A stretch of 64,000 nucleotides of DNA from Clostridiales bacterium (GTDB lineage: Bacteria > Bacillota > Clostridia > Oscillospirales > CAG-272), in the NCBI GenBank assembly GCA_012727435.1, contig JAAYHB010000011.1, positions 3,010 to 67,009 of the forward strand. Reading direction: 5' to 3'. Within the stretch, counting starts at the first letter, position 1. Every line of letters begins with the position of its first letter. The position numbers were made by a program, and so were the translations under genes. Positions 1-36,770 of this stretch are shown in pieces. Under the pieces are notes generated by a model. It saw nothing but the letters and a program-made list of their open reading frames with translations, was not told where the DNA came from and ran no database searches.

Positions 1-1175
1 GTATTCAGTGAAGTGCAATTATGAAAAGCTCTGCTTCCTATCGACCGTATCGTGTCGGGTAAGGTCACTGAAACAAGATCGGTATTGCTGAATGCAAAGG
101 TTTCAATTTTCGTTACATTTTTGCCTTCGATTTGCGCTGGGATTTCGAGCGAGGTATTTTTGCCGGTATAGCCTATAATAGCGATGCTGCCATCCGGGTT
201 TTCAATATACTCAAAACCGTTGTGCGTCTTGTGGTTGTCTTCCTCAGTTCCGATTATTTTTGTCTTATATCCGTTCCAGAGAGGAGTGGTAAATCCCTTA
301 GCGTCTTTGTTAAAATAAACAGTAAATTTTACGTTGGGGGGTGGAGGAAAACCTTCATTGATAAACTTATCTGGAGCATCACCCTCAAAGATAACCCTGG
401 TTAAATTTTTGCATCCGGCGAACACGTCTTCTATAATGCTTTTTACAGATTTCGGAATAATAATTTCCTTTATTTTTGTATCGGCAAACGCTGCATATTC
501 AATGGTAGTTAAGCCTTCGTTAAGGGTTATATTTTCCAAATCATAACACTTTTCAAAAGCAAAAGATTCAATTACGCGTACACTGCTCGGCAAAACCACT
601 TCTTTTATCTTTGTTCCTTTAAAAGCGGCACCCGGGATGGTTTCGACACCTTCTTCAAAGAAAATCACCTCAAGCCCCGAGTTGGCAAACGCTGCATTAT
701 CATACGTGCAATTTGCCTTAATTGTGATTTGTTTTAGTGATGTGCAACCAAGAAAAGCATTCATGCCGACATATGTCAAGGAATCCGGCAGATTTATTTC
801 GGAGAGCAGAGAACATTCAAGAAAAGCCTCGTGCCCTATTTTTGTAATGGTATCGGGTAATGTGTTACCGAGCGTATTTTATCTCTTTTATAATAAAAGC
901 CTTGACTAAGAATTTCCGTTACAACCTTTCCGTCTATTTCCGAAGGTACGACAACATCGCTGTCGTCGCCAACATAACCTATCCAAAGGGTACCGTCCTC
1001 TTTTTCTTCATAGTAAAAATCCTCCGGCGGATTTGCCTTGTTTCTTTTCTGATGTAACTGTTTGGGTGTCAGTGAAAGTAGAGGTCTCGTCGGTATTACT
1101 ATTTGAATTTTTGCACCCGCCAAGAACCGTTAACAGTATGGCTGTAATGAAGATCAAAGCAGATGTTCTTTTCAT
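1..1175 (-). pseudogene. BspA-type leucine-rich-repeat (LRR_5) lipoprotein, interrupted by two frameshifts; runs off the window edge
   Basis: ATG at 1175 with AGGAG RBS gives MKRTSALIFITAILLTVLGGC (lipobox). The frame shifts near 1040-1060 into ORF 836..1123 (YVGDDSDVVVPSEIDG) and near 861-866 back to the original frame, which reads LPDTITKIGHEAF...LPDSLTYVGMNAF...LPDTIRSIGSRAFHNCTSL. Confidence 0.85.
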
Positions 1176-1293
1176 ATGTACTCCTGTTTTTAATTCATAT
1201 GTACTCCTATTTTTTGATATATTGCATTATACACCATATCATGGATTCTGTCAATGATCTCGATTTTTTTTTGATTTTGATTGCACCCGGCAT

Positions 1294-1321
1294 AAAAAAG
1301 AGCAACCCGAAGGTTGCTCTT
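1294..1321 (-). terminator. Intrinsic terminator
   Basis: Hairpin AGAGCAACC-CGAA-GGTTGCTCT with an A-tract on its left, which is the U-tract on the minus strand. Confidence 0.75.
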
Positions 1322-1402
1322 GATAATTAAAGTGCAACATTGTCAATAGTATATACAAATCTATTATGCAAACTTAGCGATAATAGCACCGGTATAAATC
1401 CT

Positions 1403-1489
1403 TCATAGTCGCTCCGTCTGTTTTTTTATCTGCGCATAAATCTGTTCATAAATAGGCAGATTGCTTGCGTTACTTATGATAATATTCAA
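1403..1489 (-). pseudogene. Truncated YtrA-subfamily GntR regulator (N-terminal 28 aa only)
   Basis: TTG start after a GGGGGG RBS translates to MNIIISNASNLPIYEQIYAQIKKQTERL*, matching the characteristic YtrA/GntR N-terminus (I.I...S..PIYEQI..QIK). The HTH is absent. Confidence 0.7.
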
Positions 1490-1512
1490 AACAACCCCCC
1501 GTTTGTTCAAAT

Positions 1513-1537
1513 ACTGTATATAAACAGTATATACAGT
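1513..1537. promoter_or_regulatory. YtrA-type operator palindrome
   Basis: Perfect inverted repeat ACTGTATATA-N5-TATATACAGT, i.e. ACTGTA-N13-TACAGT, directly upstream of the GntR relic. Same geometry as the B. subtilis YtrA site AGTGTA-N13-TACACT. Confidence 0.65.
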
Positions 1538-1824
1538 GTACACGGAAACATGTAAATTGTCAATACAGAAAACATTTTAAAACATAATTGACCGAATCTT
1601 GCCGTGTATAGCCTGGCATAGCTCTGCGGGTAGTCGAGAGGTGTCATACAAAAGGCGATATGAGGTCAATATCGCCAAGTATATGTTTTAGTGGCAAAAC
1701 AATTTTATCTTGCAAACAATCATAAGCTGTATTATAATAATACTGTCATAGTACCGGGAACCTATAACATCAAGGATGCAAAAATAATTATTAATAATAA
1801 ATTATTATTTCAGGAGGTTGACCC

Positions 1825-2769
1825 ATGCGAAAATTTACATTATTCCTTCTTGTTATCGTGATGCTGCTTGCCGTCTCGGCTTGCAACAATGGTGGTTCAG
1901 AAGACACGACGACAAGCGCCCCTGAGACAACCACCGACGCTTCCGGCACGACCAAGGCTCCCGAAACGACCAAAGCCCAGTCTTCCGACACGACCACTAA
2001 ACCCCCGGAGGGAACAACTACGCCCGAGACAACCGCGCCTTCTGTCCAATATGGCGAGAACGAGTACGGAACCCTTCCCGATTCCGAACTGGTGGCCTAT
2101 AAAGTCCTGCTTCCCGCTCAGCTTCCCGACGGGTCGCCTATCGAGAATTTCGTGCGTCCTATGTGCCTTGACGAGACATTTGATTCCGATGGGGTCGGCG
2201 AGCATTACATGATTTCGGGCAACTCGTCGCCTCAGGCAAAGTTTGTCACCATCCAGGAAGGTGCGCTCTACGGCACGGCCCTCAATATCAGCGCCTACGG
2301 CCAGAGCGTCGATAAACGGGCTGAGGTCGAAGTTATGCCGCTCGATCCTGTCTCGCCGGTGGGCGCGAAAGGTGTTCTGTTCTGGGTTGATTTCTCCAAT
2401 ACCGACATTCAGACCGACACATCAAAGGCGTATAAATACTGCGCCTCGGTTACCTTCAACAAAAACGACTTCAGAGCCAACAAGGATAACAACGGCTCCA
2501 TAGGTTACTATTATCAGAACGGCAAGTGGGTTGAGACAAAGAACATCAACGCCTGCCGCATGGAGCTTCCCGATCAGTTCATGGGTTGGGTCTACATCCC
2601 CGCTACCTCTTATATAAGAACCAGCGACAAATCCTCCATCGCTGATGATGAGGGCAGATTCACCGACTTTGCCTTAATCACCAATATGCGCCTCTACACA
2701 GACGGCTATGTTTACACCGATTCGCCTGACAAGTACATTATCTTTGATGAGATTTTGTTCGTATACTGA
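1825..2769 (+). CDS. Lipoprotein of unknown function with Thr/Pro-rich linker
   Basis: AGGAGG RBS; lipobox LAVSAC; PETTT repeats followed by an unassigned globular domain. Confidence 0.85.
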   Translation: MRKFTLFLLVIVMLLAVSACNNGGSEDTTTSAPETTTDASGTTKAPETTKAQSSDTTTKPPEGTTTPETTAPSVQYGENEYGTLPDSELVAYKVLLPAQLPDGSPIENFVRPMCLDETFDSDGVGEHYMISGNSSPQAKFVTIQEGALYGTALNISAYGQSVDKRAEVEVMPLDPVSPVGAKGVLFWVDFSNTDIQTDTSKAYKYCASVTFNKNDFRANKDNNGSIGYYYQNGKWVETKNINACRMELPDQFMGWVYIPATSYIRTSDKSSIADDEGRFTDFALITNMRLYTDGYVYTDSPDKYIIFDEILFVY

Positions 2770-2786
2770 TTAACCGACAATAAAGC

Positions 2787-2821
2787 GCCTCCGGGCCTCA
2801 TGCGAAGCCCGGAGGCTTTTG
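2787..2821 (+). terminator. Intrinsic terminator between convergent genes
   Basis: GCCTCCGGGC-N10-GCCCGGAGGC followed by TTTT. Confidence 0.8.
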
Positions 2822-2907
2822 TCAGCTGGCATAATTTTGATTTGAGCGGAAAGGGAAGCGCAAAACTATAATAAGAAATCAAAAATCTTTTTTCTTTGGC
2901 CGCGCTA

Positions 2908-4455
2908 TCAGAAGCTCATGTTTTTCATGAACAGCTCGGAGAAGCGCGGCAGGGTGTTGAGGTCGAGAACCTCGCTGTGCCGGGCTATATCAGAGATTTC
3001 GTCAACCGCCGCACTGTCGCACAGGCAGGCCTCGGCGCCGGCCAGCGAAGTATTGCCGACAACGCAGAACTTTTCAGGATCAGTATCCGGCAGAAGGCCG
3101 GTGCGCCTGGCGCTTGTGGTATTCAGATAATAACCCAGCCCGCCGGCGATGTAGATTTTTTCGATATCGTCAGTACTGACCCCTGCATGCTCAAGAAGGG
3201 CAGAAAATCCCGAGAATATCGCGCTTTTTGCAAGCTGAAACTCCCGCACATCGCGCTGAGTAAGCCCGATGTGCGGTATTTTATCAAATTGCAGCAGGCG
3301 GCCATTTGATTCGCTCACATGCCGGCCCCGCGCTTCTGGTGTGCCGCAGAGCGAAAAGTCGCCGTCCTCCATATATCCGGTCTCATCAATTGTGCCGGTA
3401 TCAAGCAGTGCCGCCACAAGGTCAACCAGCCCGCTGCCGCAGATGCCAACCGGGGGCAGGTCCCCTATGGTGCTGTAGGTGAGAATCCCGGGGAAATCTT
3501 TTAAGAGGTTGACACGGCTCACGCCACCGGGTATCCCGCCGGTACCGCAGGAGATATTGGCGCCCTCAAGCGCCGGCCCCGCCGCGGCAGAGGCCGCAAT
3601 AAGCCTCATACCCCCTGCTCTGCCGGTGAAGAGGACAATTTCGCCGTTCGTGCCGATGTCCATGAGCACCGAAGGCCGGCTGTGACGTGTCATCCGTGAG
3701 ACATATACCCCGCCGGTGATGTCGCTCCCGATGTATGCCGAAGCCGAGGGGAGCAGAATCACCCGCTCAACCGGCAACCCTAAAGAGGCGCCGTCATAAT
3801 CGCGCCGCTCCGTAAAGACCGGGGTGAAGGGATAGGTCCCGATACCTTCGGGCGAAATACCGCAGAATATATGTAGCATTGTGGTATTGCCGGCGACGCA
3901 AAGACAATCAGGTCTGGCATCCGGATATGCGGAACCGAAATCGCGGATAATTTCTGCGGCCTTCTCGCGCACAAGGCGGCAAAGTTTGTCGAGTCCCCCC
4001 TCCTTGCAGGCCACAATGCGGCTTATGACATCGGCGCCATAGCTGCGCTGAGGGTTAAGACACGACCGGGTTGCGAGAACCTCCCCGGTTGCCCGGTTGA
4101 CCAGCGAGGCGGCCAGCGTGGTGGTGCCGATATCAAGCGCGACACTATAGCCCGCCTCCTTGCCTGCTGCCTGCCTTGCGGCGTGAGTTGTCAGTCCGCT
4201 GCCGCCGTTGTCGGGTAGTGAAATTTCAGCGCCGGCCGGGGTACACACTGCCCGGCAGGCCAGTATCTGCCCGTGCCCGTCGGGCGGGTATTCACTTCCG
4301 TCATAATACAGAAATCTCCCGCTTTTTACATTCACCCGGCATTTGCCGCAGGTCCCCCGCCCGCCGCAGTCGGCGGGAATTTCATAGCCCTGCAAGGTCA
4401 GCCAGTCAATCAGCCTTTTCCCCGCGGCTCCGGGCGGAATATGTATATTTGCCAT
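2908..4455 (-). CDS. ASKHA-family reductive activator of corrinoid proteins (RACo/RamA-like, DUF4445) with N-terminal 2Fe-2S domain
   Basis: CGGRGTCGKC...LAC ferredoxin motif; ALDIGTTT, MDIGTNGE, GICGSG, AGGLG motifs. Confidence 0.9.
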   Translation of the reverse strand: MANIHIPPGAAGKRLIDWLTLQGYEIPADCGGRGTCGKCRVNVKSGRFLYYDGSEYPPDGHGQILACRAVCTPAGAEISLPDNGGSGLTTHAARQAAGKEAGYSVALDIGTTTLAASLVNRATGEVLATRSCLNPQRSYGADVISRIVACKEGGLDKLCRLVREKAAEIIRDFGSAYPDARPDCLCVAGNTTMLHIFCGISPEGIGTYPFTPVFTERRDYDGASLGLPVERVILLPSASAYIGSDITGGVYVSRMTRHSRPSVLMDIGTNGEIVLFTGRAGGMRLIAASAAAGPALEGANISCGTGGIPGGVSRVNLLKDFPGILTYSTIGDLPPVGICGSGLVDLVAALLDTGTIDETGYMEDGDFSLCGTPEARGRHVSESNGRLLQFDKIPHIGLTQRDVREFQLAKSAIFSGFSALLEHAGVSTDDIEKIYIAGGLGYYLNTTSARRTGLLPDTDPEKFCVVGNTSLAGAEACLCDSAAVDEISDIARHSEVLDLNTLPRFSELFMKNMSF

Positions 4456-4493
4456 TGTTCATCCTAAAGCGCCTGCAAAAAACTGCAGCACGT

Positions 4494-5618
4494 TTATATT
4501 TTTATCTTTTTGATTTCTTCGGCGTAATACTGGACAAGCTCGAATTTGGTGCCCGGCATCAGCCTGTGGTCGGGGCAGGGAATGAAACCGCCGAGGGCTA
4601 CAAGCCGCTTTAACCGCTCGATCTCGGCGTCAACCGCCGCCTTGTCGGTGCAGAGCGCCACCTTGTTCATCCCGCCGACCCCGAGCATTCCCGGACCGTA
4701 TTTTTTACGCGCCGCCTCGAACTGGTCGCCCCAGACTCCGACCTCTATCGGAAACATGATATTGACTCCGTTCTCAAACCATATGGGGAGCAGTTTATCC
4801 ACTACCCCGTCACAGTCAAGCGATATCAAATCAATACCGTATCGTCTGAGCAGGTCGTTGAAGCGCTTGTAGTGCTTTCCGCAGAGCTTGTTGAAAATCT
4901 CCGGAGAAATAAGCGGGCCGCCTTTATAGCAGACATCCTCCCAATAGTGCGCGAAATCAAATTTCGCGCCGGTTTTCAGCACCTCCTCAAGGCACTTGTA
5001 CTGCATGTCAGCATATGTGTCCACGATATCGGCCAATAGGTCCTCGTCCTCGTCGTAAATCAGGTAGCTGAGCCCAACAAGAGAGGTCATGTTCCGAATC
5101 GTTCCTAAAATGCTGCCCGCCGAGATGCCTACCGGCACGTCAAGCTTTTCGTACACTTTCTCGTTGAAGGTACGGAAAAAATCATAATTTACCCGCTCGG
5201 GGAAAAACTGCATTCTGGGTTTATACAGTTCTTCAAAGGCTTTTCGGTCTTTGAGCAGATAGTCGTCTTCAGCCGGGATCGAGACCACCCCGGGGCGCAC
5301 CTTTTCAATGACGCCGTAGCTGTTCTGAATACGCTTGGTGCCGTCGGGCAGCACCTCGATAACCTTCTGCTCGAACTCCGGGTAAAGATGCTTTGAGGCG
5401 CCGTATGTGTGCGACCAGTTGTAGTCCCAGCCGATGATCTTGTCAAGCTCTCTGTCATAGGCGTTGCTGTCCCGCACCTTTTGGGCCAGTTCCTGTGAAA
5501 TTTTTCCCTGAGCCGCCCATTCGTACAGCAACTCGCGCCAGTATCCGAAATGAACAGCAGGCAGCCGGTCGGCCGGTTTGTAGTGCAGGATATTCAGAGT
5601 TCTTTCCCGGTTTGTCAT
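4494..5618 (-). CDS. Uroporphyrinogen decarboxylase/MtaA-fold methyltransferase family protein
   Basis: WEDVCYKGGPLISPE, DCDG, GGMNK, GGFIPCPDH motifs; located in a corrinoid cluster. Confidence 0.8.
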   Translation of the reverse strand: MTNRERTLNILHYKPADRLPAVHFGYWRELLYEWAAQGKISQELAQKVRDSNAYDRELDKIIGWDYNWSHTYGASKHLYPEFEQKVIEVLPDGTKRIQNSYGVIEKVRPGVVSIPAEDDYLLKDRKAFEELYKPRMQFFPERVNYDFFRTFNEKVYEKLDVPVGISAGSILGTIRNMTSLVGLSYLIYDEDEDLLADIVDTYADMQYKCLEEVLKTGAKFDFAHYWEDVCYKGGPLISPEIFNKLCGKHYKRFNDLLRRYGIDLISLDCDGVVDKLLPIWFENGVNIMFPIEVGVWGDQFEAARKKYGPGMLGVGGMNKVALCTDKAAVDAEIERLKRLVALGGFIPCPDHRLMPGTKFELVQYYAEEIKKIKI

Positions 5619-6673
5619 ATTTTTTCCCTCCGGTTTTCAGAAAATACGGGACAGGGGGCGATTTCGGTGTCTTTGTGTGTTACAAGCTCCGCATATTCTC
5701 TCAACAGTTTTACATATGTGAAGTAGTTTTCAATGGACACGTCGGGCGGCGTCTGGTGGTCGCAGGACGGGATAAATTTGCCCCGGTGCATGCTGGGCAG
5801 AAGCCGCTCGAACTCAGCCCGCATGGCAGCCTCGCCGTGCTTCATGCACATCTTGTCAAAATGGCCGAGAAAGGCCATTTGCGGCTGCTTGTCAAGGTAA
5901 ACCGAAACATCCACGCCGGCCCGCCTTTCAAGCGGGAACATCCCGTCAGCCCCTACCGAGGCATACCAGTCGAGGGCCAGCGTGATATCCCCGTCCGAGT
6001 CTATGAATACCGGCACGCCGTATTCGTGTATCACCGGTATCACCTTTTTGTAAAAGGGCGCTAAAAATTCGTCAAAAAGCTGCTTTGATATCATAGGCCC
6101 GTTGTTGTAGCTCATGTCCTCGGCAAAGCTCATAAAGTCAAACTGGAATCTCGGTAAAAGATACCGAAAGAGCTCGATAAGCCAGTCGGCATACTCATTG
6201 CAGATTCGACGGTAGAGATCGGGATAGTCATAAAAGCTGTAGAGGTGGTTCTCTATCCCGAAAAGCACACGGGGATACCAGAAGGCGCCCTCCACAGTCA
6301 GAAAATGCAGGGTTTTTCCGTCCTCATGCTGCCGGTGCAGCAGTTCAATACGCTCCTCGGTGACAACAGTCCCGACATCCGGAAAGAGCGTCGGGAGGAT
6401 TTTTTCATAATCGTGCTCGTCGGTTATAATGCCGGCCCCGCGCGCCGGCTCTTTAGGCGTGTTTTTTGTCCGGTTTTTCACCGAGAGCTGCAGGCACCTG
6501 TCAAGCCCGAAATACTCCTGCAGCGAACCGACCGTGGCGGCGGCATTTTTCGGCAGACCTTCACTGAGCCAGCGCTCAACAGTCAGTTTCCACCACGGCG
6601 CCCATTCGATAACCGGCAACCGGTCTACCGGCTTACCTGAGAGCAGATTTCTGAATCTTTCCGAGGCTTTCAT
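5615..6673 (-). CDS. Uroporphyrinogen decarboxylase/MtaA-fold methyltransferase family protein
   Basis: AEDMSYNNGPMIS, IDSDGD, GHFDK, FIPSCDHQTPP motifs; stop overlaps the next start (ATGA). Confidence 0.8.
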   Translation of the reverse strand: MKASERFRNLLSGKPVDRLPVIEWAPWWKLTVERWLSEGLPKNAAATVGSLQEYFGLDRCLQLSVKNRTKNTPKEPARGAGIITDEHDYEKILPTLFPDVGTVVTEERIELLHRQHEDGKTLHFLTVEGAFWYPRVLFGIENHLYSFYDYPDLYRRICNEYADWLIELFRYLLPRFQFDFMSFAEDMSYNNGPMISKQLFDEFLAPFYKKVIPVIHEYGVPVFIDSDGDITLALDWYASVGADGMFPLERRAGVDVSVYLDKQPQMAFLGHFDKMCMKHGEAAMRAEFERLLPSMHRGKFIPSCDHQTPPDVSIENYFTYVKLLREYAELVTHKDTEIAPCPVFSENRREKI

Positions 6674-6691
6674 TACATTCCTCTTGTCAAT

Positions 6692-7696
6692 TTATTTATT
6701 GTAAAAGTCGCGTGCGGCGCTGAAAAACGCCTCGATATTCTCCCACGGGAACCTCGGAGGTATGTCGCAGCCCGACGAGAGCACAAAATTCGGGTACTTC
6801 GAGCAGCGCTCGAGCAGCTCGGTTGTTGCCTTGTATATGCTCTCAGGTGTGCCGCTGAGAAACTGTTCCGTCGGAGATATATTTCCCAGCACCAGTTTAT
6901 CAGGCGGCATTTTACTGAGAATATCCTCAAGATTAATGGCATCCCCGAAGTGGTAGGCCACAGCGCCGTTGGTGCTGAGAGATTCGGTCATGTAAGGGGT
7001 ATTTTGCCCGCAGTTATGATAGAACACGCAGAAACTACTGTCAGAGACGGCCTCAATTATTTTCTTTACATAGGGCGCTGAAAACTCGCGCTCAAGCTCG
7101 GGAGACAGCAAACCGGCCAGCGGCTCGGCCATGAGTATGCCTATTGCTCCGGTAGACTTATAGGTTTTGGCGTACTTAATCAGAAATTCGGTGGTCTTCT
7201 CAAGCACTGCGATGACAAAATCGGGGTCGACAAGGCAGTTTGCCAGTGCTTCGGATACGTCCATGAGCCGCCCGGCCAGCGAGAAGGGGCCTATAATCCC
7301 GGCCAGCACCGGCCGGTCTTTGATGAGTCGGCAGGCCAGCCTTGCCGCCTCAATATAAAGCCCGGTTCTCCCTTCACCTACCTCGGGAACTCTGAGCGCT
7401 TTTGCCTCCTCCCCGTCGCTGATTAGCCTGCCGACAACCGTCGGGATTTCGTTCTCCGAGGCTTTTATCCTGCAGCCGAAGGCCTCAGCCTCAACCGACA
7501 GGTCCATCATTGATAGAGATACAGCCGACTTTACTCTGTCGGCTACTGCCTTCATACCCTTTGCCTGCAATTCGGAGCTGTGTGTAAGCTCATATACAGA
7601 CACTCCCAAAAGCTCAACCGTAGGGAAAGACAATATTGGTAAGGGTTTGCCGCTCTTCGGCAATCCTGCAAGCCAGTCTCCAAGGTTTATATTCAT
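6692..7696 (-). CDS. MtaA/CmuA-family methylcobamide methyltransferase
   Basis: DLSVEAEAFGC, GPFSLAG, Zn ligands HNC and SSGCDIPP. Start set at MNINLG (7696). Confidence 0.85.
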   Translation of the reverse strand: MNINLGDWLAGLPKSGKPLPILSFPTVELLGVSVYELTHSSELQAKGMKAVADRVKSAVSLSMMDLSVEAEAFGCRIKASENEIPTVVGRLISDGEEAKALRVPEVGEGRTGLYIEAARLACRLIKDRPVLAGIIGPFSLAGRLMDVSEALANCLVDPDFVIAVLEKTTEFLIKYAKTYKSTGAIGILMAEPLAGLLSPELEREFSAPYVKKIIEAVSDSSFCVFYHNCGQNTPYMTESLSTNGAVAYHFGDAINLEDILSKMPPDKLVLGNISPTEQFLSGTPESIYKATTELLERCSKYPNFVLSSGCDIPPRFPWENIEAFFSAARDFYNK

Positions 7697-7801
7697 AATT
7701 TCTTTCACTCAAATGTTTTATTCTGCAGACTCACTCTGCCCCGGCGAGGCGGCGAAAGCTCTTTTAGGTCATGCCGATGATTTTTTGAGACCCCGGCAAC
7801 T

Positions 7802-8437
7802 TCATTCCTCGAAGAAGGCGCGGGCCGCTATTGCGGCAGAGGCGGCGTCAGGCGCGTAGCAGTCGGCACCTATTTCGTCGGCAAACTGCTGGGTTATCGG
7901 TGCGCCGCCGACCATCACCTTGACCCGGTCGCGCAGTCCTGCGGCGACCAGCGCGTCAATTATCTCCTTCTGTCCCGTCATTGTCGTGGTAAGCAGGGCC
8001 GAGAGGCAGACCAGCTTTGCCCCGGTCTCGCGCACGGCACAAACCACCTGCTCGGGTCCGACGTCAACACCGAGGTCAATGCACTCGATTCCCTGTCCCT
8101 CAATCATCATCTTCACAAGGTTTTTGCCGATATCGTGCATGTCGCCCTTGACCGTGCAGATAATGGCCTTGCCGAGCGGTTTTACCCCGCTTGAGATGAG
8201 CGCCGGGCGCAGAATTTTAAGCCCCGCGTTCATTGCGCGGGCCGCAACAAGCACCTCGGGCACAAAAACCTCGTTTCGGCGGAACTTCTCGCCTACTTCG
8301 TTCATGCCGGCAATCAGCCCTTGATTCAGAATGTCAGCCGGAGAATAGTTTTCGGCCAATGCCTGTTCGACGAGCACGGATACCTCTTTGGCCCGTCCGC
8401 GCTGAAGTTTTTCGGAGATCTCATTTAAGATGCTCAT
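7802..8437 (-). CDS. Corrinoid (B12-binding) protein of a methyltransferase system
   Basis: N-terminal B12-binding helical cap; GDMHDIGKNLV, SALLTTT, VGGAP motifs. Confidence 0.93.
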   Translation of the reverse strand: MSILNEISEKLQRGRAKEVSVLVEQALAENYSPADILNQGLIAGMNEVGEKFRRNEVFVPEVLVAARAMNAGLKILRPALISSGVKPLGKAIICTVKGDMHDIGKNLVKMMIEGQGIECIDLGVDVGPEQVVCAVRETGAKLVCLSALLTTTMTGQKEIIDALVAAGLRDRVKVMVGGAPITQQFADEIGADCYAPDAASAAIAARAFFEE

Positions 8438-8613
8438 TGTCAGCTCTCCTCGCTATTGGATTTATACCTAATTATACCACACCGCTTTAGCAATATCAAT
8501 GCTTATTCGGATTGTAGCAGCCTAATTTGCAATATTTCACGGCAGGTGATATAAAGTTTGTTTTCCGAAAACGATTGAGGATTCTCAAGAGATTATATTT
8601 TCTGATAAACAAG

Positions 8614-8648
8614 AATGCACGCCTTTGTCGGGTTTTTGGGCGTGCATT
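8614..8648 (-). terminator. Probable terminator downstream of the Gfo/Idh/MocA gene
   Basis: AATGCACGCC ... GGCGTGCATT inverted repeat. Confidence 0.5.
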
Positions 8649-8768
8649 ATGTTGTACGTTCTGTTTTTCATTATCGTCCGGTCGCCTGGGTTGCGATGTA
8701 TCTTATGGGAGCTGTTTATGTATTGACGGCTGTGACTATATAGTTTACTCCGTACAAATTGTTCTGCA

Positions 8769-9935
8769 TTACCAATTTGTATGCCAGCGGCAGGGCTGCC
8801 CCCCGGCATCGGGGAATAGGCGGTTCCTTGGTTTTGAGTTTTTAATCTTTTCCTCGAGCAACGAATCAAAAAGCTTTGTGTCAAGCTCTTTTACGGATAC
8901 CCTTTTGCCTGTCCAGGACGACAGATAGGCGGCGTTTGAGAGGGCAATTTCGTTGATTCCGTCGTATCCCGGCGCAAGAAGCTCCTCTCCGTAAAGCACG
9001 GCGTTTGTAAAATTCTGAATTATTCCGTTATGCGCGGGTTCTTTTTCGGTCTGCTCAAACACCTGCTCCTGAAGATTATACTCTGGGAAGGCGTTCGGAT
9101 CGTTATAGCAGAATTCGCGCTCGTCGCCCTCAAGCAGGTACAAGTTCAGCTTTTTCTTCTCTATGACCAGTTTCCCTCGGCTGCCGCTTATTTCAAGGCG
9201 GTTGGTTCCCGGATATTCTCCGGTTGAAGTAATGAAGGTCGCGGTCGCTCCGTTTTTGTAGTAACCGTTTATAATGGCATCGTCCTCAACCTCGATGTCA
9301 TGCCATTTCCCTACGTCGCAGGTGGCGTAAATTTCATCGGGCATACCGAATATCCACTGCCAGAGGTCAAGATTATGGGGCGCCTGATTGAGCAGCACTC
9401 CTCCTCCTTCGCCCGCCCAGGTTGCCCTCCATGAGGCCGAATTATAGTAGCTCTGGGTGCGGTACCAGTTGGTGATAATCCATACCAGCCGTTTAGGGGT
9501 GCCGAGTGTCCCGTTTCGGATCAGCTCTCTCGCCTTTTGAAACAGGGGATTTGTCCGCTGATTCCACATTATCCCGAACACCCTGCCGCTTTTTTTTGCG
9601 GCGTTGTTCATTTGAATGACATCGCTGACTCTTACGCCCGCAGGCTTTTCGGTCAGCACATTGAGCCCGGCGCCGAAGGCCTCTATTGCAATCGGCGGAT
9701 GCAGGTAATGGGGCGTTGCAATGATCACCGCGTCAATGATTCCCGATCTGATCAGTTCCCTGTAATCTTCAAACACGGCGACATTTGCAAGCTCCGAGGC
9801 TTTTTTGCGTTTTTCGGCGTCAATGTCACATACAGCGGTAAGCTCGGCATCTATTATCTTACCGCTATGTAAGTTTTTTGCGTGGGTCGAGCCCATGTTG
9901 CCGAAACCGACAATACCGAATCTTACTTTGTTCAT
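8769..9935 (-). CDS. Gfo/Idh/MocA-family NAD(P)-dependent sugar/inositol oxidoreductase
   Basis: GIVGFGNMG, IATPHYLH, TEKP, GGGVLLNQAPHNLD motifs. Confidence 0.92.
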   Translation of the reverse strand: MNKVRFGIVGFGNMGSTHAKNLHSGKIIDAELTAVCDIDAEKRKKASELANVAVFEDYRELIRSGIIDAVIIATPHYLHPPIAIEAFGAGLNVLTEKPAGVRVSDVIQMNNAAKKSGRVFGIMWNQRTNPLFQKARELIRNGTLGTPKRLVWIITNWYRTQSYYNSASWRATWAGEGGGVLLNQAPHNLDLWQWIFGMPDEIYATCDVGKWHDIEVEDDAIINGYYKNGATATFITSTGEYPGTNRLEISGSRGKLVIEKKKLNLYLLEGDEREFCYNDPNAFPEYNLQEQVFEQTEKEPAHNGIIQNFTNAVLYGEELLAPGYDGINEIALSNAAYLSSWTGKRVSVKELDTKLFDSLLEEKIKNSKPRNRLFPDAGGQPCRWHTNW

Positions 9936-10015
9936 ATGCACCTTTCCTTCCCGGCGGCGTAAACTTTACCTCAATATTTAAAGAGAGAAAATACCGCTGT
10001 AAACCTCCTTATAGT

Positions 10016-10777
10016 TTATTCAAGTCCTTTAGACCGGAGATATTCGTAGCTCTTTTTTAGCGCGTCAAACGGGTTCTCGCCGTAGCTGTTGTCCTGCTCG
10101 ACCAGAAGGTATTCGGTTCCCGCCGACTCTGCCGCCGAAATGACGGCGTCAAAGTTTATATTGCCGTATCCTACCGGCGCCATTCTCTGTTCCTTTTTGA
10201 ACATGACAAGGTCTTTGAGGTGAATGCACGGCACGCGGCCTTTGAGCTTTATTATCCATTCTGCCGGGTTTCCTCCGCCGACCTGTATCCAATATGTGTC
10301 GAGCGTGAACCCCAAACTGTCGGCGGGAAAAGCTTCAATCATCCTTTCAAGATAAGTCATTTTTGTGTTATATTTGCCGAACTCGAAATGATGGTTGTGG
10401 TACATGAGATACGAGCCGTTGTCCCTTATTGCTTTTGCTACGGGTAAAAATTCTTCGATAAATTCGTCTATTTTGTCAAGGCCATCGCACCCGCCGGGGA
10501 GCGAGCCTATCCCGATATGCCTGCAGCCGAAGACATTGTGTGCCCTGACAACTCCTTCGGGGTCTTTTTGGATTTCGGCGGGGTTTGTATGGGTGATAAC
10601 GCAGGATAACCCGGTCTGTTTTAGCTGTTCGGCAAGCCATTCGGGCTCATATTTACAGGTACCCGAGACCTGAACGGTTGTATACCCTATGTCGGCTATC
10701 TTTTTTAATGTTTCGGCAAAGCCTTCGGTGGTCTGGCAATACTCGCGGACCGTGTATAACTGTGCCCCTATTTTCAT
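10016..10777 (-). CDS. Sugar phosphate isomerase/epimerase (IolE/xylose-isomerase-like TIM barrel)
   Basis: IGAQLYTVR, YHNHHFE, LDTYW, IHLKD, VEQD motifs. Confidence 0.9.
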   Translation of the reverse strand: MKIGAQLYTVREYCQTTEGFAETLKKIADIGYTTVQVSGTCKYEPEWLAEQLKQTGLSCVITHTNPAEIQKDPEGVVRAHNVFGCRHIGIGSLPGGCDGLDKIDEFIEEFLPVAKAIRDNGSYLMYHNHHFEFGKYNTKMTYLERMIEAFPADSLGFTLDTYWIQVGGGNPAEWIIKLKGRVPCIHLKDLVMFKKEQRMAPVGYGNINFDAVISAAESAGTEYLLVEQDNSYGENPFDALKKSYEYLRSKGLE

Positions 10778-10792
10778 GCCCGATAATTCCTT

Positions 10793-11650
10793 TCAATTTA
10801 TGTTATTGATTATGCTTTTCAGCGAATTGACCGCGGTATCGAAAGCTTGTGCGGGTGATGTGAATCGGCGCTCGGCAATATTGCTCCTCTCGCCCTTTTT
10901 TTCAAGTGCAGATAACCCGTGGAAAACCGTGAGATGAGGCTCGATGGTCAGCACCCCGCCGCCGTTATCCCTGTATCGCACAAGAAGCTCTGCGATATTG
11001 CATATCCCTTCGCCGGCAGGGACTATCCTGCCGTTTTCGGCTACGTCTTTTATGTGAAGGTACTTGACATATGGCCTCAGCACCTCCCATGCGTGCAGGA
11101 CCTCTTCGCCGCAGCAGGCAAAATTTGCGGGATCAAAAACCGCGCGGAGTTCGGGCAGAGCCTTATGCATCTCCTCGCATCTTGAGGCGATGTCGTCGAA
11201 TATTCCTTTTTCGTTTTCGTGGCAGAGGGTGATTCCTGACCCCTTCGCGGCCTCGAGAAACCTTGACAGTCTTTCGAGCACTTCGTCGCGCAGGCCGTCG
11301 GAAATGTCAATACCCGTATGGTAGAAGCTGAACAGACGTATGTTCTTTGCTCCGAGTATGTGCGCGATTTCAAGGGTATTTAGAAATTTATCATAGTGGG
11401 GGGCAAAATCATCCGAAATTTCGATTTTCCCAATCGGTGAGCCTGTTGACCATACCGATATGCCTTCATCATCGAGCTTCTGTTTTATCATTCTTGCTTC
11501 TTCGGGCGTCAGGCTTGAGACATTTTTGCCGTCAACTCCCCTTATTTCAAGAAGGCTTATCCCGTTTCGCTTCATGGCTTCTATCTGCCCGGCAAGCGCC
11601 TTGTCGGCTTCGTCGGCAAACGCGGCAAGTCTGAACATATTTTCTGCCAT
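10793..11650 (-). CDS. Sugar phosphate isomerase/epimerase (xylose-isomerase-like TIM barrel)
   Basis: AAFADEA, IRLFSFY, HENEKGIF, FDPANF, HIKD, TIEPHL motifs. Confidence 0.9.
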   Translation of the reverse strand: MAENMFRLAAFADEADKALAGQIEAMKRNGISLLEIRGVDGKNVSSLTPEEARMIKQKLDDEGISVWSTGSPIGKIEISDDFAPHYDKFLNTLEIAHILGAKNIRLFSFYHTGIDISDGLRDEVLERLSRFLEAAKGSGITLCHENEKGIFDDIASRCEEMHKALPELRAVFDPANFACCGEEVLHAWEVLRPYVKYLHIKDVAENGRIVPAGEGICNIAELLVRYRDNGGGVLTIEPHLTVFHGLSALEKKGERSNIAERRFTSPAQAFDTAVNSLKSIINNIN

Positions 11651-11844
11651 ACTTGGTTTATATCCTCCAGAACTCTTTCATGTTAAATTATAGCACATTT
11701 CGTGGGGAAAACCAATAGTTTTATCGGCTCAACAAGCGGAATTTTGCTTCGGTCGTTTTTTTTGTACGACAGTGTCTTTATGTATTGCATCATAGAAGAA
11801 TTTGATATATAATTTAAGAAAACTACTTTAGAGAGGATGGACTT

Positions 11845-13323
11845 ATGAAAAAACTCGGTTTATTTCTGGCAATCATTTTAGCTCTTATGGCTCTTGGTTC
11901 CTGCACACAGACAGGAGTCGACAAGGAAAGCACTGATGTGGACGAAACCACGACTGTCAACACAGGAGAGACGAGCAACGACAGTACATCCGAAACAACA
12001 GAGGACACAACGGAGGACAGGATTTTGACAAACGAAGTGCCGAAAACCCTGAAAGTATTGGCCATAGGCAACAGCTTCAGCACAGACGCCATGCAGTACC
12101 TCTATGATATTGCAAAGAGTGCCGGAGTTGAGGAAATTGTACTCGGAAATCTGTATATCGGCGGGTGCAGCCTTGCAACCCATCTGGCCAATGCAAAGTC
12201 GAACGCCCGGGCGTATACATATTATAAAAACACCAGCGGCACATGGGTGGCAAATAAGGAAAAAACGCTTCTTGAAGGGCTGACCGACGAGAAGTGGGAT
12301 TATATCTCGATGCAGCAGTCAAGCCCGAACAGCGGAATTGCGTCGACATACGGCAACACGCTCACCCAGCTTGTAGCTTTCGTCAAGGAAAACATGACAA
12401 ACCCCGATGCAAAACTTGTCTGGCATATGACCTGGGCTTATCAGTCCGACAGCACGCATTCGGCCTTTGTGAATTATAACAAAGACCAGATGACAATGTA
12501 TAACGCGATAGTTGACGCGGTACGGAGCTGTGTTTTGACGGTTCCCGACTTCACTGCCGTAATACCGTCAGGCACGGCGATACAGAACGCCCGCACAAGT
12601 TTTGCAGGCGACAGACTCACCCGCGACGGGTACCACCTAAACTATAACCTCGGCAGGTATATTGCAGGTCTTACCTGGTACGCCGCAATCACCGGAGCGC
12701 CGCTCGAGGGGGCTACCTACAACCCCGCTCCCTCCGAGATTACCGATGACGTGATGGCAATGGCGAAGGAAGCCGTCAAGAACGCAATAATAAAGCCTTT
12801 TGAGGTCACCGAGTCAACATATAAAACCGGTGTTTGGACCCCGGCGACTATCAGAAATTCCGACCCGGTGGTTCCGGCCGACTGCTTTGAGGCCGATATG
12901 GCGCTGGCGGCGACTATCGGCATTGACCTTAACAATTATGTGCTCTTTGAATATGAGTATCTTGAGAACAGCTACTGGTACTGCACAAAGGGCACCTCGA
13001 TTACAACCCCGGGGAGCAGCGCCAGCACATACCACCAGAATATCTGCTCAGCCAAGATTTACTCAAAAGCCGAAATTCCCGAGAATTCGATTATTATTTG
13101 TGATCCCGGCTGGCAGTTCAGACCCGAGCTTTGGGAGACGCTTGACCAACCCGCCAAGACCAGGCCGGAGCTGACCACGGCAAATATTACCCTGATGGAT
13201 GCAAAGTTCTGGGGGAGCAATAATTATTTCGCTTTCAATATAGCCGCAAGTCCCAAGGCCGATATATCCGAATATTATGCCGCCGCGGCGACACACATCA
13301 GGATTTACATTCCGAAAAACTGA
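11845..13323 (+). CDS. Lipoprotein with DUF4886 (SGNH-hydrolase-like) domain and an extra C-terminal domain
   Basis: Lipobox LGSC; Thr-rich linker; VLAIGNSFS, NLYIGGCSL, WDYISMQQ, RDGYH motifs. Confidence 0.8.
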   Translation: MKKLGLFLAIILALMALGSCTQTGVDKESTDVDETTTVNTGETSNDSTSETTEDTTEDRILTNEVPKTLKVLAIGNSFSTDAMQYLYDIAKSAGVEEIVLGNLYIGGCSLATHLANAKSNARAYTYYKNTSGTWVANKEKTLLEGLTDEKWDYISMQQSSPNSGIASTYGNTLTQLVAFVKENMTNPDAKLVWHMTWAYQSDSTHSAFVNYNKDQMTMYNAIVDAVRSCVLTVPDFTAVIPSGTAIQNARTSFAGDRLTRDGYHLNYNLGRYIAGLTWYAAITGAPLEGATYNPAPSEITDDVMAMAKEAVKNAIIKPFEVTESTYKTGVWTPATIRNSDPVVPADCFEADMALAATIGIDLNNYVLFEYEYLENSYWYCTKGTSITTPGSSASTYHQNICSAKIYSKAEIPENSIIICDPGWQFRPELWETLDQPAKTRPELTTANITLMDAKFWGSNNYFAFNIAASPKADISEYYAAAATHIRIYIPKN

Positions 13324-13392
13324 TATGACAGATTACCCCAGGCGGGTTCATTGAACTACCCGGGGTGAACCTTTAGGCGAACGTCTATATCA

Positions 13393-13432
13393 ATGACATG
13401 GGGAACTAATTGCATGAAGTTCCCCATGTCAT
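13393..13432. terminator. Bidirectional terminator hairpin
   Basis: Perfect 15-bp stem ATGACATGGGGAACT/AGTTCCCCATGTCAT between convergent genes. Confidence 0.8.
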
Positions 13433-13434
13433 AT

Positions 13435-16400
13435 TTAATTAACCCGCACTGTCAGGATTTCAAAGGGCTTGGCGACAAGGCAAAGGGTATTATTCTCAAG
13501 TCTCAGTTCCGAGACAGGGCGCTCGAGAAGGTCGCAGAGGGTTGCCGACCTGACGTCAAAGCCGAAATGAAGACAAAAACGGGTGAGCTTGTTTTTCGCC
13601 TCGTACATTCTAAGAATATATCCGTCGCCGTTCTCTGCTTTTTTCACAGTCTCAAGGAATATATTGTCGGAGTCGACCGAGACGAGCGAATAGCTCTCGG
13701 GCAGCTCGCCGCTCCCGTGTCTTGCGGCGACGGGGCGCAGCGGGTGGTTGAGCAGGTAGGCGAGCTTTTGGGTGTCTGACTCGGCGAGGCTGCCGGCGTG
13801 GGGGTGGAGAGAGTAGGTGAAGACATGGCGGCCCTGGTCGGCGTCGGGGTTCGGGTGGGTCGCGCACTTGATAAGCGAAATGCAGACTGTGTCGCCGTGG
13901 ACATCGTAGCCGTATTTGCAGTCGTTCATGAGACTGATGCCGTAGCCGCCGTCCGACAGGTCGGCGTATTTGTGGGCACAGGTTTCAAATTTCATCCGGT
14001 CCCACGGAGTGTTTTTGTGGGTCGGCCGCTCGATGCTGCCGAACTGAATGTCGAAGGTCGCGCGGTCGGTGTTGACATCGGCCGGGAAGGCGGCGCGAAG
14101 CAGTTGATGATGTTCGTGCCAGTCGGCCTCGGTTTCAAAGTCTATGGTCGGAATGTCGTCGTAGATGCGGATGTTCTGCACTATTGTGCTTGAGCCCCAC
14201 CTGCGCGTGACGCGATACCCGGCGCCTGCCGAATCGGAAAACGGCTCGGCCGACTCAAGCTGGTCGAGCAGATATACCTTGTCGTTGACATACATCGAGA
14301 TATCCCAGGCGTCGTATTTATACGGGAAGTCCTCGTGGACGCGCAGCTCGTTGGCCCGCTTCCCAGCGGGAAGCACCTCGCGGCAGGCCCTCTTGTCATA
14401 AATGCGCGTGATGGTGTAGGTCCGGTCGAATTCAATGAGGAAGAAGTCGTTCTCAAGCCGCCTCTCGCCGATAACGCAGCTTGTTTTCTTTGCCCGTGGG
14501 GTCAGCGCGAGCCAGCCCTTGGCAGGGACCGGGCCGACAAAGAACCTGTCCCCGCCGTGCTCGATTATACCCGAGGCGTCAAAGGAATGCGGGTTGAAGA
14601 CAATCAGCTCCTCATCGGTTTTGATCCTGTCAACAAGGACGGACACAGCGTCGTTTATTATGCCCTCGAGCGCCTCGCGAATCTCATTATACTCCCGGTC
14701 GGTGACCTCATAGACTTCTTTGATTGAGGAGCCGGGGAGGATATCGTGGAACTGGTTTGTGAGTATCATTTCCCAAATCTTGCGCAATTGCCCGGCAGGG
14801 AAGGGGTGGCCGGCGAGCAGCTCGGCCAGGGTTGCGAGGAGTTCGGCGTCGAGCGCGAGAAATTCGGATTTACGGTTATTTCGCTTGTTTTTGGCTATCG
14901 AGGTGTAGGTGCCGCGATGAAACTCGAGGTATAGTTCACCCCTCCACTCGGGCACGCGGGGGTTGTTTGCCATCTTCGCCTCGGTGCGGCGAAGGAAGTC
15001 GCCGGCAAAACCTATCTCGGCCGCCGTCCCGCCGGGCAGTGCGTGTCTGTGGCGGCGCAGGGTCTCGAGCATCTCCTCGTTTGGCCCGCCGCCTCCATCG
15101 CCGTAGCCGAAGGTGAGCAGCGCCTCGTCGATAACGTCCTTCTGCTGAAACCTTTCCCATGTGCCATTTATCTGGGCCGGCGTCGCCTTGCCGTTGTAGG
15201 TCGAGGTTTTTGTGGGCTCCTGCCCGAGCTTTTTATCCTGTGCGGTGAGAAAATATGCGTTGACCGGCGTACCGTCGATTCCCCGCCAGACAAAAAGGTC
15301 ATAGGGCATTTTGTTCAGCTCGTTCCAGCCGATTTTCGAGGTGACAAACCAGTCGACGCCGCTTTTTCTGAGTATCTGCGGCAGAGCGGCCGAGTAACCG
15401 AAGGCATCGGGCAGCCAGAGCACGCGGCTCTCAACCCCGAACTCCTCACGAAAGAACCGCTTTCCGTATATAATCTGCCGGACAAGCGACTCGCCGGTGG
15501 GCAGGTTGTTGTCGGCTTCCACCCACATCGCACCTTCGACCTCCCAGCGCCCGGAGGCTATCATTTTTTTGATTTCGGCGTAGAGCTCCGGGGCTTCCTC
15601 CTTTACCGTCTTGTAAAGATAAGCCTGTGAGGACATGAATTTATACTCTGGATAACGCTTCATCAGCGCGATGACGGTTGCAAAGCTGCGCTGAGCCTTC
15701 TCGCGGGTCTGAGCCACCGTCCATAACCAAGCGATGTCGATATGCGTGTGGCCGATGCAGATTACCTTGTGATCGTCAGTGCGGTTTTTTCGGTAAAGCT
15801 CGGCCTCAAGGTAAGCGCTTGCACGGGCAGCCGAGGCGAGAAATTCGGGCGAGCCGGGGATACGCAGGTCGAGCAGGTTGACCGCGTCGTCAAGAACCCG
15901 CAGTATATTCGCGTACTCGGAGGAATAGGACGGTAGCAGCTCGAGGGTCTGAACCGGGATGAGGAGGTCGTAATAGAGCTTGACAACAGTCTCGTTTACC
16001 GCCCTGAGCGAGAGGATGAAGGTGAGATTGGCCTTCTTCAGGCTCGAATATCCATAAAAATAAAGAGTGACCGGGCCTCTGCTCTCAAGGCGCAGCGAGT
16101 TATGGTTTCTGTCCAGCGCCTGAAGCATGTTCCCGGAGGCGTCATATACGATGAACTCGGGGTTGGTCCCATCCCAGCCGCCGATGCTGGTGTTTACAAA
16201 GAGGTCGTAGGGGGTGCCCGAGTATTCTTCGGGGATTGTGTAATCGACCTTAAACCAGACGTGAGAGTCGGGAGTGGTTCCCCAGATGCCATTCTTTTCG
16301 AAACGGACAAACTCACTCTCATCCGGGGGAGTGTTGTTTGATTTATAGTCGCAGGGACAAAAGGCGATATTAACCGGAGTTTTGATTTCGGTCCAACCGA

Positions 16401-16452: not shown

Positions 16453-16674
16453 TTTGTTGCCCCTTAATTAAAAATGTTCAAGGATATTATACATAAGAAA
16501 GCTAAGTATATCAAGTGTGATAAAAGATAAATCGGTCTAGAATTTCATGATATCCGGTACGCTTTTATTAAATTTTTATATACAGTAGCTTTTTGCGTTT
16601 TTTATGGTAAAATGATGGTCGCGGTTACATTTGGTGATTGTTGCCGAAGGTACAGCCAGGACAGGAGGAATACA

Positions 16675-17703: not shown

Positions 17704-17735
17704 AAATGTTTTATTAATTTAAAAAAGATTTGATT

Positions 17736-17766
17736 AGGCACTCTGCGCAAGTTGTGCAGAGTGCCT
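17736..17766. terminator. Bidirectional terminator hairpin
   Basis: AGGCACTCTGCGCAA/TTGTGCAGAGTGCCT stem between convergent genes. Confidence 0.75.
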
Positions 17767-17910
17767 CAATTGTTTTCGGACCCTGTTTCTATTGAATTTT
17801 TGCATCCCTGGTATAATCGGGTTGGCAGAAGATATGCCGCGGTTTCCTGACAAGAGATAAAATTATGAAAACATTTATTATGGTCAAGAAGGGAAATACG
17901 AGTTTTTTGT

Positions 17911-19731: not shown

Positions 19732-19784
19732 TTCTTTCCCCTTCGAATTGATTTATGCCTGAGGGTGGAGCAACAAAACTGACT

Positions 19785-20733: not shown

Positions 20734-20809
20734 ACAGCCAACAATTCGTAATTAATAAGCAATAATAACGAAAGCAAACGAAAGGATGCGCAGGAATCCG
20801 GGTGCCAAA

Positions 20810-36750: not shown

Positions 36751-36770
36751 CGGCCAAAGGAGGGTGGGAC

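Follow-up and report, generated by a model that had tools for sequence, protein, structure and literature searches.

Where does a methyl group go when a corrinoid methyl-transfer system is found outside the acetogens? To our knowledge, the known anaerobic O-demethylases belong to acetogens and pass the methyl group to folate. The question is raised by a five-gene operon in a stretch of 64,000 nucleotides (nt) from contig JAAYHB010000011.1 of a Clostridiales bacterium (assembly GCA_012727435.1); this whole stretch is called the window below, and coordinates refer to it unless a genome or locus is named. The operon encodes a corrinoid protein, a reductive activase (RACo) and three enzymes of the URO-D fold, and it is a real, widespread and uncharacterised variant of corrinoid methyl-transfer systems. 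We give an even chance to the proposal that it forms a self-contained, folate-independent module, similar to O-demethylases, in which a thiol or sulfide accepts the methyl group.

The operon and its three URO-D-fold enzymes

The operon occupies positions 2908-8437 on the minus strand. Its genes encode, in order, the corrinoid protein, an MtaA-like protein, two divergent URO-D-fold proteins designated U2 and U1, and RACo. The genes and the sites that bound them are as follows, with protein lengths in amino acids (aa).

7802..8437, minus strand: methyl-carrying corrinoid protein that binds B12, 211 aa; GDMHDIGKN is its DxHxxG motif
6692..7708, minus strand: MtaA-like URO-D-fold methyltransferase, 338 aa from a GTG start or 334 aa from an ATG at 7696
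5615..6673, minus strand: U2, divergent URO-D-fold protein, 352 aa, URO-D score 55.8 bits, motifs IDSDGD ... SCDHQ
4494..5618, minus strand: U1, very divergent URO-D-fold protein, 374 aa, motifs LDCDG ... PCPDH
2908..4455, minus strand: RACo-type ATP-dependent reductive activase of corrinoid enzymes, 515 aa, with N-terminal 2Fe-2S, middle and ASKHA domains
8471..8499, minus strand: promoter-like site of the operon, TTGATA-17 nt-TATAAT with a TG-extended -10 element; the corrinoid protein starts about 30 nt downstream
8614..8648, minus strand: perfect inverted repeat (10 nt, loop of 15 nt) between the gene for a GFO/IDH/MocA oxidoreductase (GFO) and the operon promoter; CTTGTTTATC comes next on the minus strand
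2787..2816, minus strand: hairpin resembling an intrinsic terminator, with 10 G-C pairs in its 13-bp stem, about 90 nt past the stop codon of RACo

The initial annotation had proposed a RACo activator, a corrinoid protein and three URO-D paralogues, and all five genes were recovered at these positions, by Pfam searches and, for the fold of U1, by AlphaFold2 and Foldseek. The corrinoid protein matched B12-binding_2 (81 bits), B12-binding (94 bits) and TIGR02370 (208.8 bits); it consists of a B12-binding_2 cap and a Rossmann B12-binding domain, as do the carriers of four-component O-demethylases. RACo matched RACo_C_ter (219.6 bits), Raco_middle (144.9 bits) and Fer2 (31.5 bits), and its score of 309 bits against an AcsV-type model was below the cut-off. 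The MtaA-like protein, which carries the motifs FYHNCG ... SSGCD, reached 168.8 bits against the URO-D model, and U1 reached 24.8 bits, barely over the cut-off of 23.9.

The start of U1 and the stop of U2 overlap by 4 nt. The promoter-like site agreed with the consensus at 11 of 12 positions and was the top-scoring site between positions 2600 and 12000, and the hairpin beyond RACo is common to the operon and to a convergent lipoprotein gene. The inverted repeat at 8614..8648 is possibly the terminator of an upstream unit, made up of the GFO gene and two genes for TIM barrels, and would then separate that unit from the corrinoid operon. Given the promoter, the tight spacing, the terminator and the hairpin at 8614-8648, the five genes are most simply read as a separate operon. 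No riboswitch or other RNA family was detected by an Rfam scan of positions 1-20000. Recent horizontal transfer was also considered and rejected, as the G+C content of the module (54.9%, compared with 53.4 +/- 2.3% for the genome) gives no compositional signal.

The URO-D fold of U1, the weakest of the three members, was confirmed at the level of a predicted structure. The best Foldseek matches of the AlphaFold2 model (predicted local distance difference test, pLDDT, 93.6; predicted template-modelling score, pTM, 0.91) were UROD 2eja and the M. mazei MtaA 4ay8, both with a template-modelling score of about 0.63 and a probability of 1.0, and MetE barrels appeared further down the list. Sequence searches of the PDB gave no significant match with U1 alone, U2 alone or a U1-only profile. 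A mixed profile of U1, U2 and paralogues matched MtaA 4ay7 (1e-13), UROD (3e-10) and, weakly and over part of its length, the chloromethane methyltransferase CdmB 9rui (3e-8). The MtaA-like protein aligned with the M. mazei MtaA 4ay7 over almost its full length (1e-18). Its scores were below the curated NCBIfam cut-offs for PRK06252 (146.8 versus 244), TIGR01463 (132.6 versus 235.4), and the MtbA and MtaA equivalogs (116.2 versus 600 and 106.5 versus 400, respectively).

Two of the three paralogues had been described as carrying DxDG...DH motifs instead of the HxC...C zinc site of the third, and this distinction held at the ligand columns across 121 sequences of each family. The zinc triad of the MtaA-like protein, H231/C233/C314, is invariant in its 121 homologues. 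At the columns of the MtaA zinc ligands, U1 has D268/D270/H351, invariant in 121 sequences, and U2 has D225/D227/H306, kept in 120-121 of 121. The motif itself required refinement: U1 has invariant Cys269, Cys348 and Asp350 in addition (Asp268-Cys269-Asp270 ... Cys348-x-Asp350-His351), and the cysteine in the 'SCDH' of U2 is not conserved, being valine in 107 of 121 sequences. U1 and U2 are about 14-15% identical to MtaA-type enzymes. An hhalign register of U1 against the MtaA-like protein, with a probability of 5%, lay one residue off the MAFFT register and was set aside; the MAFFT register was retained because paralogues from related loci form a graded series (HSCG, HSDG/HTDG, DSDG/DCDG; that is, HxCG, HxDG, DxDG) that supports it. 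Within the UroD superfamily, S-methyltransferases have His-Cys-Cys, and O-methyltransferases exchange the cysteines for carboxylates or non-ligands (Kountz & Balskus preprint, PMC10418091).

From these patterns we infer a direction of transfer, a role for each enzyme and the nature of donor and acceptor. The operon would follow the classical logic of methyltransferase I (MT-I or MT1), corrinoid protein and methyltransferase II (MT-II or MT2), with an MtaA-type MT-II replacing the pterin-binding one. With ATP and its 2Fe-2S cluster, RACo would re-reduce corrinoid protein that has fallen into the inactive Co(II) state, restoring Co(I). U1 and U2, with Asp/Asp/His for His/Cys/Cys, would be the donor-side MT1 enzymes, each activating a different O-methyl (ether-type) donor, and Co(I) would take the methyl group to give the CH3-Co(III) corrinoid protein. 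The MtaA-like His-Cys-Cys zinc enzyme would fill the MT2 role as a methyl-corrinoid:thiol methyltransferase, moving the methyl group to a thiolate. Candidate acceptors would be sulfide or methanethiol, homocysteine, or another small thiol; for homocysteine as the alternative acceptor, MetE has a site of the same H-x-C...C type.

Module conservation and the folate question

U1, U2 and the MtaA-like protein each have thousands of homologues (3943 for U1 and 5912 for U2). The best 120 of each are 62-95% identical to the proteins of the window, save three U1 entries that are identical or 99% identical; the best 120 are at least 70% identical for U1 and 65-89% identical for U2. Named matches were Clostridia metagenome-assembled genomes (MAGs), and the matching genome loci came mostly from animal gut, with a few rumen, digester and human-gut MAGs. 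The strong conservation of U1 spans the Oscillospiraceae, Acutalibacteraceae and Lachnospiraceae.

Gene neighbourhoods were compared at 80 genome loci found with U1, with flanking open reading frames (ORFs) clustered by BLAST; crude ORF calling recovered U1 itself in 65 of the 80. Beside U1 in these 65 loci we found the MtaA-like protein in 53, RACo in 44 and DUF2284 in 39. A corrinoid protein was present in 52 loci in all, as a stand-alone protein in 31 and fused to an AraC domain in 21. Further divergent URO-D paralogues also occurred at U1 loci. Two layouts recurred, one as in the window (corrinoid protein, MtaA-like, U2, U1, RACo, sometimes then DUF2284) and the other running from U1 through a corrinoid or AraC-corrinoid protein, DUF2284, the MtaA-like protein and RACo to a URO-D paralogue of 318 aa. 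Short runs had one enzyme of each type, as MtaA-like-U1-RACo (loci L043 and L075) or corrinoid protein-MtaA-like-U1 (L034); these three loci end at contig edges, and a corrinoid protein was not seen in L043 and L075.

Several variations on these layouts were observed in passing. The AraC-fused corrinoid protein is a single gene product of about 505-525 aa with HTH_18, B12-binding_2 and B12-binding domains (for example L085:11151-12665 and L078:7254-8831); the window has no such fusion. In the closest relative (L083/L084, 84% identity), a separate PocR-AraC gene, which is missing from the window, lies between the genes for the corrinoid protein and the MtaA-like protein. DUF2284 is a predicted metal-binding protein of about 187 aa with the motif SWSCPP (for example L033:11116-11679 and L086). 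At L080:3512-6519, L073 and L081, which share the gene order of the window, the corrinoid-protein gene is immediately preceded, in the same orientation, by genes for a DUF5722 protein (483 aa, 360 bits) and for a protein of 524 aa without a Pfam match.

The occurrence of the families was then surveyed across this organism's order, in 301 evenly sampled genomes. U1 was present in 45 genomes, the MtaA-like protein in 52, U2 in 35, and at least one of the three in 73. The MtaA-like protein was found in 11 of the 13 genomes with a U1 orthologue (at least 62% identity). U2 orthologues (at least 65%) occurred in just 4 of the 301, and the order MtaA-like, U2, U1 was seen in both genomes that have all three on one contig (G015, G021). 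More than half of the genomes with the MtaA-like protein (27 of 52) lacked U1 and had other paralogues instead. In two of these, G031 and G046, the MtaA-like protein is accompanied by RACo, a corrinoid protein and another URO-D paralogue; G046, which also has DUF2284, carries a full version. No such partner was detected near the MtaA-like gene in the loci fetched from G131 and G225, two genomes of this organism's own family that lack U1.

G131 and G225 represent two species of genus g7, and each has a U2-like gene (45% identity; G131:C2:385079-386116 and G225:C13:15200-16249) whose search match shows one in-frame TGA. Neither a corrinoid protein nor RACo was detected near their MtaA-like genes. 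The TGA could reflect a decaying remnant, alignment read-through or a recoded codon.

The pattern of one constant His-Cys-Cys enzyme accompanied by interchangeable carboxylate-type enzymes is reasonably well supported. As the shared partner of interchangeable paralogues, the MtaA-like protein fits work on the acceptor side. The comparative data thus agree with the earlier suggestion that one URO-D paralogue may act as the acceptor-side enzyme, and the His-Cys-Cys MtaA-like protein would be that paralogue.

The genome as a whole (1.78 Mb in 27 contigs, 94% complete) was also searched. Its three URO-D matches all lie inside the operon. Neither MtrH, MttB (MTTB, PF06253) nor MtaB (PF12176) was found in the whole genome, and the absence of MttB makes the question of a pyrrolysine codon moot. 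The sole Pterin_bind match is inside an 814-aa MetH with S-methyl_trans, Pterin_bind and B12 domains and without an activation domain; no gene encodes a stand-alone Pterin_bind protein. The absence of a pterin-binding MT2, MtaB and MttB, reported at first for the locus, therefore extends to the genome. Because there is no MtrH and Pterin_bind occurs solely within MetH, we conclude that the organism is not an acetogen and that it has no recognisable methyl-corrinoid:folate methyltransferase.

Hidden Markov models (HMMs) built from related loci found two B12-binding proteins in the genome (the operon corrinoid protein and MetH), one RACo (the operon copy) and no DUF2284. MetF is present twice, once adjoining MetH. 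The short MetH, lacking the AdoMet reactivation domain, and the MetF beside it lie at C12:117321-120655 of this genome (L001:679-3123). As the single reductive activase of the genome, the operon RACo might speculatively also reactivate MetH. A function of the module as the only methionine synthase of the cell was ruled out here, since MetF and MetH are present and adjacent.

Other carriers lead in the same direction with respect to folate. Among 28 other genomes carrying U1, the MtaA-like protein or both, Pterin_bind was confined to a MetH-sized reading frame in 15, occurred in a small frame in 3 (one of which, at 237 bits, is probably FolP), and was not found as a domain in 10. MetF was missing in 11 of 29 carriers, this genome included. 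With 10 of 28 carriers lacking Pterin_bind and 11 of 29 lacking MetF, folate is unlikely to be the acceptor, and a module that moves between such genomes must bring both its donor-side and its acceptor-side enzyme. The folate independence of the module is therefore reasonably well supported, and, judged from these gene inventories, methyl-tetrahydrofolate (methyl-THF) appears implausible as its product.

Several points weigh against the proposed transfer from an ether-type donor to a thiol. The assignment of donor and acceptor roles draws on co-occurrence and ligand chemistry only. CdmB, a structure of the O-demethylase clade (3e-8), is no closer to U1 and U2 than UROD is; together with the empty PDB search of the U1-only profile, this makes the label 'O-demethylase' for U1 and U2 an analogy. 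The invariant Cys269 and Cys348 beside the ligand columns may give U1 a softer metal site. In 17 genomes, a U1-like protein (45-52% identity) occurred with no MtaA-like match at E<=1e-40. The benefit of homocysteine as acceptor is not obvious in a genome that already has MetF and MetH. Finally, no conserved transporter or downstream catabolic gene indicates the substrate.

Sugar genes and alternative explanations

Previously, the genes around the operon had been taken to suggest a sugar or cyclitol substrate. The sugar-gene neighbourhood is real. Upstream on the same strand are the GFO/IDH/MocA oxidoreductase and the two TIM barrels, which are xylose-isomerase-like, and further along the window are genes for DUF4886, GH38, Zn-ADH, GH127, DeoR, an FGGY kinase, FucI-like, SIS and TIM-like proteins, GH39 and solute-binding proteins. 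On this explanation, U1 and U2 would be B12-dependent demethylases of O-methylated sugars or cyclitols (4-O-methyl-glucuronate, 2-O-methyl-fucose or -xylose, pinitol), and the freed sugar would feed the neighbouring oxidoreductase, isomerase and glycosidase genes. Activation of an aliphatic alkoxide as leaving group would be a good match for a hard Asp/Asp/His site. Full-text literature searches returned no report of corrinoid-dependent sugar or pinitol demethylation; the carbohydrate demethylases that surfaced were cytochrome P450 enzymes only, which leaves room for an anaerobic route. We nevertheless consider this explanation unlikely, for the following reasons.

The GFO, TIM, TIM, DUF4886 and lipoprotein genes of the window adjoined the module at none of the 80 U1 loci and none of 12 further loci, a genome of the same family included. 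A single pathway comprising the GFO/TIM/TIM/DUF4886 genes and the operon was dropped as a candidate on this count (0 of 92 related loci). In the closest relative, polysaccharide deacetylases lie beside the operon, the other neighbours are unrelated, and there are no sugar genes nearby. The upstream genes also failed the iol equivalogs, with 131.2 bits against a cut-off of 355 for IolG and 39.7 bits against 290 for IolE. Furthermore, the operon reads as a transcription unit apart, with a strong promoter-like site of its own and a hairpin on the upstream side, and conservation with the module extends to no family of sugar kinases, isomerases or transporters.

The wider survey of flanking genes, for which the Pfam tallies cover the 25 commonest families, was less uniform. 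No non-core family occurred in more than 7 of the U1 loci. The commonest families among 119 flanking ORFs were MFS_1 and AraC (6 each), radical SAM (4), and MFS_2 and GH2 (3 each), followed by GH127, GH106, CE4 and sulfatase (2 each); flanks were mostly unrelated, with GNAT among them. In the 83 tightly linked same-strand ORFs at 46 loci we counted GH2 and MFS_1 4 times each, DUF5722 and MFS_2 3 times each, sulfatase twice, and GH95, UxaC and UxuA (the last two of glucuronate catabolism) once each. GH127-like genes recur, in this window and at L024. The sugar association of the initial annotation failed for the immediate neighbours in the window, which adjoined the module at none of the 92 related loci, but it persists in part, in that a minority of loci carry GH2, MFS_2, DUF5722, GH127, GH106, GH95, sulfatase or UxaC/UxuA.

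This minority link of the module to glycoside and uronate utilisation recurs, but it is too weak and too mixed for a sugar substrate to be named. These genomes commonly carry glycan genes in any case, and GH2, GH106 and sulfatase suit conjugated phenolics equally; the link would fit conjugated methoxy-phenolics (glucuronides, rhamnosides, sulfates) as well as it fits sugars. A carbohydrate- or glycoside-linked substrate is possible, and we consider methoxylated aromatics or their glycosides more likely donors than methyl-ether sugars.

MtsA-type enzymes run both ways, and the polarity proposed above could be reversed, although we regard this as improbable. The His-Cys-Cys enzyme would then load the corrinoid protein from methyl-sulfur or methyl-selenium (methyl-S/Se) compounds such as methanethiol, dimethyl sulfide or methylselenol, and U1 and U2 would pass the methyl group to oxygen or other acceptors, in sulfur or selenium salvage. 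Type 1 mlp clusters, the closest published type, have been proposed to act on methyl-S/Se compounds, and ClMlp2 carried out methylcobalamin:selenide transfer in vitro (PMC10418091). However, of the three enzymes here a single one has His-Cys-Cys, and a type 1 cluster requires two or more Mlps of that kind; no genes of S/Se metabolism occur among the approximately 30 annotated genes of the window or the commonest flanking families; and methylation of an oxygen acceptor from a thioether donor would be thermodynamically unattractive.

It is least probable, and in our view very improbable, that a divergent URO-D paralogue, with U1 as the candidate, is a new methyl-corrinoid:tetrahydrofolate methyltransferase of non-pterin fold that feeds methyl-THF to MetH and MetF: the unusual conservation of U1 across three families would be in keeping with a universal co-substrate, MetH and two copies of MetF are present in this genome, and the URO-D fold is related to the methyl-folate-binding MetE seen among the Foldseek matches, but 11 of 29 carriers are without MetF, the carriers without Pterin_bind, hence without MetH (10 of 28), would have no use for methyl-THF, U1 is missing from 27 of 52 genomes with the MtaA-like protein, and no folate-binding motif was identified.

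Other features of the window were recorded alongside. The FGGY kinase is split into two overlapping ORFs at 20786-22235 on the plus strand (FGGY_N at 20786-21532 and FGGY_C at 21486-22235), within a DeoR-regulated sugar operon that includes the FucI-like, UPF0047, SIS and TIM-like genes; it is either a frameshifted pseudogene or an assembly error. At 1-1123 on the minus strand is a BspA-type leucine-rich-repeat fragment with a G+C content of about 40%, compared with 53% for the genome, followed by AT-rich intergenic sequence to about 1800. At 35353-39005 on the plus strand, a weakly matching MBOAT-like membrane O-acyltransferase (24.2 bits against a cut-off of 27) precedes a protein of 774 aa with an AlgX-type SGNH domain, and the pair looks like a polysaccharide O-acetylation system. 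At 50435-54547 on the plus strand, a 1370-aa alpha-2-macroglobulin-like protein with A2M_BRD, A2M and MG2 domains is encoded.

Significance and comparison with known systems

The guts of herbivores and humans are rich in methoxy groups, which are carried by lignin-derived phenolics, flavonoids, drugs and plant-wall sugars. About a quarter of the genomes sampled from one Clostridia order carry the module, and its metagenomic homologues run into the thousands. Transfer from ether-type donors to a thiol or sulfide, if correct, would extend corrinoid-dependent demethylation to sugar fermenters without the Wood-Ljungdahl pathway, many of them without folate methyl metabolism, and would define a new functional clade of the URO-D superfamily. 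With sulfide or a thiol as acceptor, dietary methoxy compounds would be tied to volatile sulfur compounds or to methionine supply. Culturable carriers of the module exist (Eisenbergiella porci WCA-389-WT-23B and Lachnotalea sp. AF33-28), so the idea is directly testable.

The closest published description is that of the type 1 mlp clusters, which occur in obligate anaerobes, mostly Firmicutes, and have apparently been transferred as a unit (PMC10418091). As here, these clusters bring together a corrinoid protein, a bacterial RACE/RACo and several UroD-superfamily proteins, and do not include a tetrahydrofolate methyltransferase, which some of the hosts lack altogether. They differ in two respects. 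Type 1 clusters are defined by at least Mlp2 and Mlp3, each about 30% identical to MtaA/MtbA and with His-Cys-Cys, whereas the operon has a single His-Cys-Cys protein and so falls outside the two-Mlp definition; and they sit among S/Se genes, of which there are none in the surroundings surveyed here.

The OdmABCD/Vdm and MtvABC O-demethylases of acetogens and Desulfitobacterium and the CdmBCA chloromethane system resemble the operon in having a UroD-superfamily MT-I, the role proposed here for U1 and U2, a corrinoid protein and a COG3894/RACo protein. In these systems, the methyl group passes from the donor to Co(I) and then from CH3-Co(III) to the acceptor (PMC13222342, PMC12915777). In the aryl methyl ether O-demethylases, however, the MT-II is of the pterin-binding type and the methyl-THF formed enters the Wood-Ljungdahl pathway, and this genome has neither such an MT-II nor that pathway. 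U1 and U2 are also remote from CdmB 9rui (3e-8, partial), the one solved structure of the OdmB/VdmB/MtvB/MtoB/CdmB clade. The methylcobamide:coenzyme M methyltransferases of methanogens (MtaA, MtbA and MtsA) have the fold and the H-x-C...C zinc triad in common with the 338-aa MtaA-like protein, but this protein is far below the equivalog and subfamily cut-offs of MtaA/MtbA. In this host, a fermentative bacterium, coenzyme M is unlikely to be the acceptor.

The nearest physiological parallel is Parasporobacterium paucivorans, which, according to Lomans 2001 as cited in PMC7374477, degrades methoxylated aromatics only with sulfide and forms methanethiol and dimethyl sulfide. As in the reaction proposed here, the methyl group of the methoxy substrate ends on sulfide and does not pass via folate; the likeness is one of physiology. 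A bolder form of the proposal, which we put forward tentatively and expect to be wrong rather than right, is that the operon represents a portable, folate-independent O-demethylation module of non-acetogenic gut and rumen Clostridia, in which a deep, hitherto undescribed Asp/Asp/His clade of URO-D proteins would cleave diet-derived methyl ethers (4-O-methyl-glucuronate-type sugars or methoxylated phenolic glycosides), with sulfide or a thiol then receiving the methyl group through an MtaA-type zinc enzyme. If so, the module would supply the missing genetic basis of sulfide-dependent O-demethylation and one gut route to methanethiol and dimethyl sulfide.

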